From: a virus
Lineage: Duplodnaviria; Heunggongvirae; Uroviricota; Caudoviricetes
DNA: 21,382 nucleotides
Virus record (IMG/VR): IMGVR_UViG_2874962485_000007
Direction: 5' to 3' (one strand)
Shown: one piece after another, positions 2,611 to 6,141 of the stretch
Numbering within the stretch: position 1 is the first letter of the stretch
Layout of the letters: each line of letters starts with the position of its first letter
The notes under the pieces: model-generated
The model's database searches: none
Seen by the model: only the letters and a program-made list of their open reading frames with translations
Told to the model about the DNA's origin: nothing
Made by a program: the position numbers and the translations under genes

Positions 2611-2674
2611 TGAGGTAGCCTGAGTTTAACGGACACTCCTTCCTGAAATAAAATGGCATCAGAAGGAGCTAATA

Positions 2675-2977
2675 ATGAGCAGAAAAACCCAACGTTACTC
2701 TAAAGAGTTCAAAGCCGAAGCTGTCAGAACGGTTCTTGAAAATCAACTTTCGATCAGTGAAGGCGCTTCCCGATTATCCCTTCCTGAAGGCACTTTAGGA
2801 CAATGGGTTACCGCCGCCAGAAAAGGGCTCGGTACTCCTGGTTCCCGCACGGTGGCTGAACTGGAATCTGAAATTCTGCAACTGCGTAAGGCGTTAAATG
2901 AAGCTCGCCTTGAGCGCGATATATTAAAAAAAGCAACAGCGTATTTTGCACAGGAGTCGCTGAAAAATACGCGTTAA
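2675..2977 (+). CDS. IS600 OrfA (IS3-family transposase N-terminal HTH protein)
   Basis: 100-aa ORF MSRKTQRYSKEFKAEAVRTV... with leucine-zipper-like C-terminus; AAGGAG RBS 7 nt upstream; slippery A7G near the 3' end. Confidence 0.9.
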   Translation: MSRKTQRYSKEFKAEAVRTVLENQLSISEGASRLSLPEGTLGQWVTAARKGLGTPGSRTVAELESEILQLRKALNEARLERDILKKATAYFAQESLKNTR

Positions 2978-3012
2978 TCGAACAATGGCGACAACAATTT
3001 CCCATTGAAGCG

Positions 3013-3831
3013 ATGTGTCAGGTATTTGGTGTATCCAGGAGCGGTTATTACAACTGGGTACAGCATGAACCCTCAGACAGAAAACAAAGTGATGAGCGGT
3101 TAAAACTGGAGATTAAGGTGGCACATATCCGCACTCGCGAAACATATGGAACCCGGCGGCTCCAGACGGAGCTGGCAGAGAATGGCATCATCGTTGGTCG
3201 TGACCGACTGGCACGTCTTCGTAAGGAGCTGAGGCTACGCTGTAAGCAGAAACGCAAGTTCAGAGCGACTACGAACCCGAACCACAATCTGCCAGTTGCG
3301 CCAAATCTGCTGAACCAGACGTTCGCTCCTACAGCACCAAATCAGGTCTGGGTGGCGGACCTGACGTATGTTGCCACACAGGAGGGATGGTTGTACCTCG
3401 CTGGCATCAAAGATGTTTATACGTGCGAAATTGTCGGCTACGCCATGGGAGAGCGCATGACAAAAGAGCTGACAGGTAAAGCCCTGTTTATGGCGCTCAG
3501 GAGCCAGCGCCCACCTGCCGGGCTAATCCACCACTCTGATCGAGGTTCACAGTACTGCGCATACGATTACCGGGTCATACAGGAGCAGTCTGGTCTGAAA
3601 ACATCAATGTCGCGTAAAGGTAACTGTTACGACAACGCTCCGATGGAAAGCTTCTGGGGAACGCTGAAAAATGAGAGCCTGAGCCACTATCGTTTTAATA
3701 ACCGGGATGAAGCCATCTCAGTAATACGGGAATACATTGAGATTTTCTACAATCGTCAGCGTCGTCACTCTCGTCTGGGGAATATCTCCCCGGCAGCCTT
3801 CAGGGAAAAATATCATCAGATGGCTGCTTAA
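3013..3831 (+). CDS. IS600 OrfB (IS3-family transposase catalytic DDE domain; probably expressed as OrfAB by -1 frameshift)
   Basis: 272-aa ORF with an IS3-family integrase-core signature (HSDRGSQY...NAPMESFWGTLK...YNRQRRHSRLG). Confidence 0.9.
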   Translation: MCQVFGVSRSGYYNWVQHEPSDRKQSDERLKLEIKVAHIRTRETYGTRRLQTELAENGIIVGRDRLARLRKELRLRCKQKRKFRATTNPNHNLPVAPNLLNQTFAPTAPNQVWVADLTYVATQEGWLYLAGIKDVYTCEIVGYAMGERMTKELTGKALFMALRSQRPPAGLIHHSDRGSQYCAYDYRVIQEQSGLKTSMSRKGNCYDNAPMESFWGTLKNESLSHYRFNNRDEAISVIREYIEIFYNRQRRHSRLGNISPAAFREKYHQMAA

Positions 3832-3874
3832 AAAAAGAACAAATGGTAGTGTCCGCTATTGCCAGTACACCTCA

Positions 3875-4046
3875 TATTGGCTACGTAATTAAAACAGAAA
3901 ATAAAGAAACCCCATTCACTGTAGTTGATATCGACGGTCTATCAGGAAACTTTAAAACTCTTGTTGAAGGTGCCACAAAAATGTGCCTAGTTTACATCGG
4001 AAATAATCTGCCCGCAGAAAAAAAGCCGAATTTCTGGCAAATCTGA
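3875..4046 (+). pseudogene. 3' portion of a small ORF split by IS600 (joins 6141..6065 on the other strand)
   Basis: Reading frame ...IGYVIKTENKETPFTVVDIDGLSGNFKTLVEGATKMCLVYIGNNLPAEKKPNFWQI* starts directly at the IS600 right end. It joins in frame to the 25-codon 5' fragment at 6141..6065 when the TAT target duplication (3875..3877 / 6065..6067 reverse complement) is collapsed. Confidence 0.6.
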
Positions 4047-4085
4047 TTGCAATGAAATTAAAAGGTGAAATCTGAAAAAAAGAAA

Positions 4086-4104
4086 GCCTGCACAGTGTGC
4101 AGGC
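4086..4104 (-). terminator. Perfect 9-bp-arm hairpin with U-tract on the minus strand (intrinsic-terminator-like, antisense to flanking ORFs)
   Basis: GCCTGCACA-G-TGTGCAGGC palindrome. On the plus strand it is preceded by an A-tract (GAAAAAAAGAAA), so the hairpin-then-U-run arrangement exists only on the minus strand. Confidence 0.4.
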
Positions 4105-4174
4105 CTGAGTGAAGAACCTGGGACATTTATTCATCACTCGCAGTAATTTTAATCTGAGTTGAGGTTAAAAAACA

Positions 4175-4800
4175 ATGAGCACAAAACCACTCTTCCTGTT
4201 ACGGAAAGCGAAAAAATCATCCGGTGAACCTGACGTCGTCCTGTGGGCAAGCGACGATTTTGAATCGACCAGCACCACTCTGGACTATCTGCTCGTTAAG
4301 TCAGGTAAAAAACTGAGCAACTATTTTAAAGCTGTTGCCACAAATTTTCCTGTCGTTAATGACCTTCCCCCTGAAGGTGAGATCGATTTTACCTGGAGTG
4401 AACGCTATCAACTCAGCAAAGACTCCATGACATGGGAACTAAAACCGGGAGCAGCGCCAGACGACGTTCACCACCAGGATAATGCTCAAGAAACCAAAGA
4501 ACTGGCGGGAGGCCAGGAAGAAAACGCGCAGGCAGACGCCCACGAGGATTGCCAGGATTGCGAAGTCTCTGTAGCCACTTTGCGGTTCACACAGCGTCTT
4601 CTGCACATTTTTACGTATGCTGCCGGGGATCTGAAATACCTGCATCATGCCACCCGTGAACAACGCAAACACATTACTGCTCTTGAGATGGATCAGGAAA
4701 ACAGCTATGTCCAGAATCTGCTGTTGGCCATACGCGGCATGGCAGAACCGACAACTCTGGATAATGCCGCCCTGCTCCGCCTGACTGATGCAATTAAGGC
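4175..4800 (+). CDS. Hypothetical protein, 3'-truncated by IS600 (at least 208 native codons)
   Basis: 645-nt [33 protein letters not shown]... with an acidic low-complexity linker ([31 protein letters not shown]). The last 6 codons and the stop (4801..4819) are supplied by the IS600 terminal repeat, so the native C-terminus is missing. No family recognised. Confidence 0.6.
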
Positions 4801-4843
4801 TGAGGTGTACTGGCAATAGCGGACACTACCATTTGTTCTTTTT

Positions 4844-5662
4844 TTAAGCAGCTATCTGATGATATTTTTCCCTGAAGGCTGCCGGGGAGATATTCCCCAG
4901 ACGAGAGTGACGACGCTGACGATTGTAGAAAATCTCAATGTATTCCCGTATTACTGAGATGGCTTCATCCCGGTTATTAAAACGATAGTGGCTCAGGCTC
5001 TCATTTTTCAGCGTTCCCCAGAAGCTTTCCATCGGAGCGTTGTCGTAACAGTTACCTTTACGCGACATTGATGTTTTCAGACCAGACTGCTCCTGTATGA
5101 CCCGGTAATCGTATGCGCAGTACTGTGAACCTCGATCAGAGTGGTGGATTAGCCCGGCAGGTGGGCGCTGGCTCCTGAGCGCCATAAACAGGGCTTTACC
5201 TGTCAGCTCTTTTGTCATGCGCTCTCCCATGGCGTAGCCGACAATTTCACACGTATAAACATCTTTGATGCCGGCGAGATACAGCCATCCTTCCCGGGTG
5301 GCAACATACGTCAGGTCCGCCACCCAGACCTGATTTGGTGCTGTAGGAGCGAACGTCTGGTTCAGCAGATTTGGCGCAACTGGCAGATTGTGGTTCGGGT
5401 TCGTAGTTGCTCTGAACTTGCGTTTCTGCTTACAGCGTAGCCTCAGCTCCTTACGAAGACGTGCCAGTCGGTCACGACCAACGATGATGCCATTCTCTGC
5501 CAGCTCCGTCTGGAGCCGCCGGGTTCCATATGTTTCGCGAGTGCGGATATGTGCCACCTTAATCTCCAGTTTTAGCCGCTCATCACTTTGTTTTCTGTCT
5601 GAGGGTTCATGCTGTACCCAGTTGTAATAACCGCTCCTGGATACACCAAATACCTGACACAT
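4844..5662 (-). CDS. IS600 OrfB
   Basis: 272 aa, two substitutions relative to the copy 1 OrfB. Confidence 0.9.
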   Translation of the reverse strand: MCQVFGVSRSGYYNWVQHEPSDRKQSDERLKLEIKVAHIRTRETYGTRRLQTELAENGIIVGRDRLARLRKELRLRCKQKRKFRATTNPNHNLPVAPNLLNQTFAPTAPNQVWVADLTYVATREGWLYLAGIKDVYTCEIVGYAMGERMTKELTGKALFMALRSQRPPAGLIHHSDRGSQYCAYDYRVIQEQSGLKTSMSRKGNCYDNAPMESFWGTLKNESLSHYRFNNRDEAISVIREYIEIFYNRQRRHSRLGNISPAAFREKYHQIAA

Positions 5663-5697
5663 CGCTTCAATGGGAAATTGTTGTCGCCATTGTTCGA

Positions 5698-6000
5698 TTA
5701 ACGCGTATTTTTCAGCGACTCCTGTGCAAAATACGCTGTTGCTTTTTTTAATATATCGCGCTCAAGGCGAGCTTCATTTAACGCCTTACGCAGTTGCAGA
5801 ATTTCAGATTCCAGTTCAGCCACCGTGCGGGAACCAGGAGTACCGAGCCCTTTTCTGGCGGCGGTAACCCATTGTCCTAAAGTGCCTTCAGGAAGGGATA
5901 ATCGGGAAGCGCCTTCACTGATCGAAAGTTGATTTTCAAGAACCGTTCTGACAGCTTCGGCTTTGAACTCTTTAGAGTAACGTTGGGTTTTTCTGCTCAT
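5698..6000 (-). CDS. IS600 OrfA
   Basis: Protein identical to the 2675..2977 product. Confidence 0.9.
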   Translation of the reverse strand: MSRKTQRYSKEFKAEAVRTVLENQLSISEGASRLSLPEGTLGQWVTAARKGLGTPGSRTVAELESEILQLRKALNEARLERDILKKATAYFAQESLKNTR

Positions 6001-6064
6001 TATTAGCTCCTTCTGATGCCATTCTATTTCAGGAAGGAGTGTCCGTTAAACTCAGGCTACCTCA

Positions 6065-6141
6065 ATATGCTTTCCTTCCAGGTAAACCTCGTGAACAATG
6101 TTATCAGTAGTTGCAACAGTGGCTTCATAATTGGTGTTCAT
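6065..6141 (-). pseudogene. 5' portion (25 codons) of the small ORF split by IS600; strong RBS
   Basis: Minus strand reads AAGGAGAAAAAC-ATG AAC ACC AAT... (MNTNYEATVATTDNIVHEVYLEGKH) and runs without a stop into the IS600 copy 2 outer end. Confidence 0.6.

Follow-up and report, generated by a model that had tools for sequence, protein, structure and literature searches.

The DNA considered here, 21,382 nucleotides of the virus record IMGVR_UViG_2874962485_000007 and hereafter the window, carries two inverted copies of the insertion sequence (IS) IS600 and, beside them, the two halves of one small open reading frame (ORF), which we identify as racC. We believe that the window represents a decayed Shigella flexneri prophage, lambdoid and Rac-like and with ipaH as cargo, that was reshuffled by homologous recombination between IS600 copies, and we would put the probability of this reading at roughly 0.85. 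An earlier reading made from the letters alone (the sequence-only reading) had proposed that IS600 split the small ORF with duplication of a TAT, that the halves now lie on opposite strands beside two different inverted copies, and that the segment between the copies was later inverted. The split and the placement of the halves agree with the coordinates given below, and the inversion stands as a formal description of the locus; the flip of the 926-bp segment between the copies is, however, only one of several equivalent orders of events, all of which involve at least two exchanges.

The two IS600 copies occupy 2611-3874 (copy 1, plus strand; orfA 2675-2977, orfB 3013-3831; assigned from the ORFs, Pfam and RefSeq naming) and 4801-6064 (copy 2, minus strand; orfB 4844-5662, orfA 5698-6000; assigned from the repeat arms and ORFs), and together form an inverted repeat with arms of 1264 nt, 99% complementary and spaced by 926 nt. 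Each copy is a 1264-bp IS3-like element with imperfect terminal inverted repeats of the form TG...CA, starting with TGAGGTAGCC and ending in a sequence of the GGTGTACCTCA type (its complement reads TGAGGTGTAC), and encodes a 100-aa OrfA with a helix-turn-helix (HTH) motif and a 272-aa OrfB of the DDE/rve type in the -1 frame. On the S. flexneri loci the products match Pfam HTH_Tnp_1, HTH_21 and rve, and copies about 99% identical to these in Escherichia coli are named ‘IS3-like element IS600 family transposase, programmed frameshift’ in RefSeq. Copy 1 is flanked by ATG (2608-2610) and TAT (3875-3877), copy 2 by GGC (4798-4800) and ATA (6065-6067); the ATA and the TAT are identical once one of them is reverse-complemented, as the sequence-only reading had noted.

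What these flanks once enclosed becomes clear when the DNA outside the right end of copy 1 is joined to that outside copy 2. On the minus strand an ORF opens at 6141, behind an AAGGAG at 6153-6148, and encodes MNTNYEATVATTDNIVHEVYLEGKH in 25 codons; joining the reverse complement of 6068-6141 to 3875 onward, with one TAT removed, produces a single open frame (...LEGKH-I-GYVIK...), in agreement with the in-frame continuation noted before. A longer reconstruction of the ancestral locus, the reverse complement of 6068-6500 followed by 3875-4800 (1359 nt), was searched in 5,426 complete E. coli genomes, and 275 of them match 80% or more of it. In strain FDAARGOS_944 the match is in one piece without gaps, with 100% coverage, 99.5% identity and seven substitutions, and contains a single TAT at the joint; the annotation there gives ydaE, recE and, between them, a small hypothetical gene marked ‘frameshifted’. 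Such a match is far beyond chance, and it supplies the uninterrupted homologue by which the sequence-only reading had proposed to check itself, with K-12 racC in agreement. The TAT found once in the uninterrupted locus is thus found twice in the window, at 3875-3877 on the plus strand and, read on the minus strand, at 6065-6067, and represents the target duplication, 3 bp long, left by the insertion into racC. Near-identical inverted IS copies, the reverse-complementary halves of one target duplication lying inside and outside the pair, and an ancestral sequence equal to the join of the two flanks are together what recombination between the copies predicts.

The other pair of flanks, ATG and GGC, does not match, from which the sequence-only reading had concluded that the second copy arrived by a different or more complex event. 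The complexity could be traced by mapping the window onto a 63-kb reference from FDAARGOS_944 (NZ_CP065613 4281579-4345000), which holds an apparently complete, ~44-kb ipaH-bearing prophage between ybhA and pgl in the order int-xis-gam-recE-racC-ydaE-rha-cI, then cro-ydaT-replication-queH-hokD-lysis-head-tail-tail fibres-DUF4376-ipaHb, then pgl, with four tRNA genes and ipaHb as the terminal cargo. Window positions 1-2612 correspond to reference 16430-19041 and 3873-4800 to 53495-54422 on the plus strand; 6063-7818 correspond to 53501-51747 and 11857-17657 to 51751-45940 on the minus strand; and 18903-19122 correspond to 42022-42241, again on the plus strand. Mapping of a less deleted strain, CP026788, agrees with this picture. 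The unmatched flanks are therefore the tail-fibre/DUF4376 boundary and nt 626 of recE, two places 35 kb apart in the intact prophage. On the first side the outer flank A ends in the ATG, and the start codon of the DUF4376 gene is 1 nt away from copy 1; in the intact prophage the sequence runs on after this ATG as TGCATCCGG into the tail-fibre gene, and the tail-fibre side of the break beyond the ATG/CAT at the IS600 end reads TGCATCCGGCACCCCGG. On the second side, recE of the intact locus reads ...AAGGC up to the break and AGTTTTCTC after it. Relative to pgl and ipaH, the 926-bp piece with the 3' part of racC and the 5' part of recE has kept its ancestral orientation, and it is the block from the 5' part of racC to hok that is inverted and displaced.

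We propose the following history. IS600, an IS3-family element, entered racC after nt 74, duplicating the TAT at nt 75-77; further copies would have come to lie at the tail-fibre/DUF4376 boundary and, after nt 626, within recE. Homologous recombination between these 1.26-kb repeats, presumably of the RecA type, would then have reshuffled the DNA through at least two exchanges among the three IS600 positions: perhaps an inversion of 35 kb between the copy at the tail fibres and the one in recE together with a 926-bp flip of the racC-recE piece, in either order, or else excision, in circular form, of the block from the 5' part of racC to the tail genes, which would then have re-integrated at the recE copy in inverted orientation. 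The outcome is the order DUF4376, IS600, 3' part of racC, 5' part of recE, inverted IS600, 5' part of racC, ydaE, with one copy of the TAT duplication inside the IS pair and the other, reverse-complementary to it, outside. Worked through by hand, all these exchange orders yield the observed product and flanks, and the present layout does not preserve the order in which the exchanges took place; their number, too, we infer from the three positions involved.

Several observations weigh against this account, or at least complicate it. An uninverted racC::IS600 intermediate at this site was not found in ten S. flexneri loci or in the 5,426 E. coli genomes, and the reciprocal junction, IS600-GGC-AGTTTTCTCTATCACG with the recE remainder, gave no match among species-representative genomes, a set that probably lacks S. 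flexneri. No crossover point emerges from the differences between the two IS600 copies: S. flexneri strains that have the arrangement in common differ in the informative alleles, and the mapping is uninformative because the differences either post-date the arrangement or were gene-converted. Rightward of the window the S. flexneri chromosome continues with ycaD-ycaC-dmsCBA-serS instead of ybhA, and a 220-bp fragment of the lysis gene Rz (18903-19122) retains its ancestral orientation, unlike the adjoining block from hok to the 5' part of racC. Further, unordered events must therefore have taken place, and since ycaD-ycaC-dmsCBA-serS lies beyond the window, the region joined larger chromosomal rearrangements, so that the prophage remnant sits at the breakpoint of one of them. 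The Rz fragment is itself flanked by IS911 and an IS2 fragment.

The four IS600 junctions are absent from the 5,426 complete E. coli genomes. A protein for the recE remainder beginning at the break was not found among RecE homologues, in collections that hold no whole S. flexneri genomes, and the only recE remainder matches named S. flexneri (P0015 and P0019) were set aside as a different recE allele that does not begin at the break. A look-up of IS600 OrfA for other copies gave E. coli places only and is uninformative for S. flexneri.

The alternative that fares best is a one-step intramolecular transposition, in which an IS600 between DUF4376 and the recE stub attacks racC 926 bp away, inverting the intervening DNA and leaving a second, inverted copy, perhaps through a tandem (IS)2 dimer with an active junction of its inverted repeats or through a replicative pathway, with the target duplication split into reverse-complement halves. 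Such an event predicts the inner TAT and the outer ATA just as the two-step model does, it would explain why only 926 bp separate the copies, and it needs no uninverted intermediate of the kind that was not found. IS30, IS21 and IS911 dimers and IS26 give inversion-type products. IS3-family elements, however, normally transpose by copy-out/paste-in via a circle, which leads to simple insertions with direct duplications, and direct 3-bp duplications are what surround all other IS600 copies inspected: CAA, AAG and ATT around three of them, including the racC insertion of E. coli FDAARGOS_943, which lies 866 bp from an inverted copy. This simple insertion means that close independent IS600 insertions do occur in the racC-recE region. 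The copies in the window are also not identical, with 11 differences here and four in other strains, although later mutation or gene conversion could explain this. On balance we consider the one-step event quite unlikely.

The 11 differences comprise 41A and 490T in copy 1, and a patch at element positions 657-816 together with 1212A in copy 2. The patch, window positions 5249-5408, departs from the IS600 consensus by eight clustered substitutions, which LR213455 alone shares with the window; elsewhere this locus follows the consensus, and in three strains a 27-bp deletion falls within the stretch. The cluster has the look of gene conversion or of local instability in this stretch.

An assembly artefact, in which the orientation of the 926-bp segment was misassigned and the true genome holds a simple, uninverted racC::IS600, is highly improbable. 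A 1264-bp repeat is too long for short reads, and draft assemblies do show the segment as isolated contigs of ~0.95-1.2 kb. But ten complete S. flexneri assemblies under different accessions carry the locus, all in a single orientation, among them AE014073, the Sanger-sequenced strain 2457T, and the two IS copies are told apart by distinguishing substitutions. Over 1800-6600 the window is matched at 100% identity by LR213455; eight other S. flexneri assemblies are collinear with the window across this interval, and one is masked with N inside the IS copies but consistent. Among these ten genomes there is no sign of ongoing flipping of the 926-bp segment.

That the unit is a composite transposon inserted as a block, or a programmed invertible switch, as a short cargo bracketed by two inverted IS copies might suggest, is scarcely credible: the outer flanks, ATG and ATA, form no direct repeat, the two outer ends are each a left end of IS600, the cargo consists of fragments of two genes, of which the other halves lie just beyond the unit (racC) or are absent, the only recombinase ORF in 2611-6141 is the IS600 transposase with no invertase gene in or beside the segment, and the repeats are whole IS elements in one orientation in ten genomes. 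A composite transposon was accordingly rejected for want of a direct target duplication around the IS-cargo-IS unit, and a switch of the Hin/Gin/Pin or Fim type for want of a dedicated recombinase, of short repeats and of a second orientation.

Let us return to the genes that IS600 interrupted. In K-12 the gene between ydaE and recE is annotated racC (b1351, 91 aa), and by DNA as well as protein alignment the window fragments are its two halves, joined in K-12 at the same point. The 5' part lies on the minus strand at 6065-6153 (start codon 6141-6139, codons 1-25 plus 2 nt, with the AAGGAG as ribosome-binding site), and the 3' part, from codon 26 onward, on the plus strand at 3875-4075, the latter assigned by alignment to K-12 racC and FDAARGOS_944 and by NCBIfam PRK09790. 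The joined ORF does not encode the 82 aa of the sequence-only reading; it has 82 codons including the stop and hence an 81-aa product, shortened by an older frameshift from the 91 aa of RacC. The A-run at 4018-4024 is A7 in the window versus A8 in K-12, a -1 frameshift that creates a premature stop at 4044-4046, and the ancestral stop at 4073-4075 would end a 91-aa product. Because E. coli FDAARGOS_944 and FDAARGOS_943 share the A7 run, racC was a pseudogene, or else a slippery-run variant, by the time IS600 arrived. The frame-corrected 91 aa match NCBIfam NF007306 (PRK09790) over positions 1-91 with 169.7 bits (E 1e-50), against a curated cut-off of 171, and the encoded 81-aa form over positions 1-78 with 140 bits; identity to K-12 RacC is 86% over 91 aa after frame correction and 80% as encoded. 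Pfam has no RacC family, and we identify the gene from NCBIfam, from its alignment with K-12 and from synteny: it is flanked by ydaE and recE within the early-left operon of a Rac-like prophage, in K-12, in FDAARGOS_944 and in the reconstructed locus alike. The window racC is clearly homologous to RacC, but a pseudogene. A fusion ORF running from the IS into racC (3843-4046, 67 aa) appears in public records as ‘racC domain protein [Shigella flexneri]’.

Of recE, the initial 626 nt occupy 4175-4800 on the plus strand, and their ORF enters IS600 to stop at 4817-4819. This 214-aa ORF (4175-4819) matches Exonuc_VIII (PF06630, E 3e-67) and positions 1-199 of 877 of the NCBIfam exodeoxyribonuclease VIII model, and it is present on 313 contigs named Shigella flexneri. 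Both racC and recE are dead genes here, and the arrangement is without evident function.

Of the neighbouring genes, ipaH (1-1812, plus strand) encodes a type III secretion system effector E3 ubiquitin ligase, with Pfam LRR_TTSS and NEL on the 608-aa product in the S. flexneri loci; it is the cargo at the pgl-proximal end of the prophage, within the unrearranged left flank, and is collinear with ipaHb of FDAARGOS_944. The DUF4376 gene of the tail-fibre region follows on the minus strand at 1992-2609 (PF14301, E 4.7e-16). A remnant of ydaE, the gene that precedes racC in the early-left operon, lies on the minus strand at 6189-6500, assigned from the YdaE family in the collinear E. coli locus and Pfam YdaE on S. 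flexneri gene calls; the gene itself (6189-6400) is called at 46-52 aa versus 93 aa. The replication genes at 13845-15375 are apparently split by frameshifts, into 212 and 91 aa versus one 262-aa gene in FDAARGOS_944, and into 113 and 117 aa versus a 248-aa ydaV-like ATPase. The split replication genes and the short ydaE are general prophage pseudogenisation. Elsewhere in the window, an IS2 copy (7819-11856) is broken near its right end by an IS66-family element with three ORFs (9161-11776), an insertion present in only some S. flexneri strains, and a separate inverted 281-bp right-end fragment of IS2 (19122-19402) adjoins a second IS66-family element, of 72-76% similarity, which runs from 19434 to the end of the window. 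Between hok and IS911, ~2.6 kb of additional prophage DNA is retained in other S. flexneri strains (positions 11404-14551 in their loci; Rem, DUF1367 with a third IS600 inside, YbcO and DUF1133), which the window strain has lost at 17444-17700.

IS600 has entered or come to lie beside racC and recE independently in several E. coli lineages, often as inverted pairs (NZ_CP065615 locus 6001-9394; NZ_CP074998 locus 4010-8928). The sites differ: racC nt 75 and recE nt 626 in S. flexneri, racC nt ~45 and recE nt 536 in FDAARGOS_943, both sides of recE in E. coli 6883, and places within recE in several further E. coli. It is tempting, though rather doubtful, to suppose that the racC-recE region of Rac-like prophages is struck recurrently for reasons other than chance, either as a target hot spot or through selection for silencing of the retron trigger RecE and the retron-toxin blocker RacC.

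Irrespective of the order of the exchanges, the locus documents the dismantling by IS600 of an ipaH-carrying prophage beside pgl in S. flexneri, and it gives names to fragments that were anonymous: the ORF pieces of 25 and 57 codons are the halves of racC, and the 214-aa ORF is a dead recE stub. The arrangement can serve as a stable, lineage-wide structural marker, and for the ancestor of the S. flexneri ipaH island the FDAARGOS_944 prophage offers a suitable reference. More generally, where inverted IS copies have 3-bp flanks that are reverse-complementary, IS-by-IS recombination can reliably be read from them, and which piece flipped can be judged only against an intact relative, here the FDAARGOS_944 prophage. 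The split racC itself signifies little beyond bookkeeping. IS600, racC, recE and IS-driven inversion in Shigella are all already known, and what we describe is routine insertion-sequence scrambling and no new system.

A close precedent for the process is found in S. flexneri itself, where IS-mediated inversions, IS600 included, with nested inversion followed by re-inversion have been described (Nie et al., 2006, BMC Genomics 7:173, PMC1550401). There, as we propose for the window, homologous recombination between inverted IS copies rearranges the chromosome; their segments, however, exceed 5 kb and were recognised by comparing strains, whereas the segment here measures 926 bp, lies in a prophage remnant and is the same in every S. 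flexneri inspected. With the Rac prophage of K-12 (b1351/b1350) the window shares the gene order ydaE-racC-recE, the closely related RacC and the Exonuc_VIII N-terminal domain of RecE; in contrast to Rac, its racC is frameshifted and split and its recE cut short, and the host prophage is another, ipaH-carrying lambdoid phage at ybhA/pgl rather than Rac at the K-12 site. A preprint reports that RacC blocks the retron-Sen2 toxin RcaT and that RecE acts as its trigger (bioRxiv 10.1101/2020.06.22.160242). Transposition of IS26 ‘in trans’, or from the tandem-dimer junctions of IS30 and IS911, would likewise yield inverted copies, an inverted segment and reverse-complement halves of the duplication, but such transposition is not known for IS600, the checked copies of which look like simple insertions. 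A further comparison is with FDAARGOS_943 (NZ_CP065615), in which the same prophage carries an independent racC::IS600 near nt 44-46 with its direct CAA duplication, and the second, inverted IS600 in recE lacks a matching duplication; the insertion coordinates are other than those in the window, and the segment between the copies is unflipped. This locus illustrates the intermediate state that we propose, and in this sense it lends support to the two-step idea.

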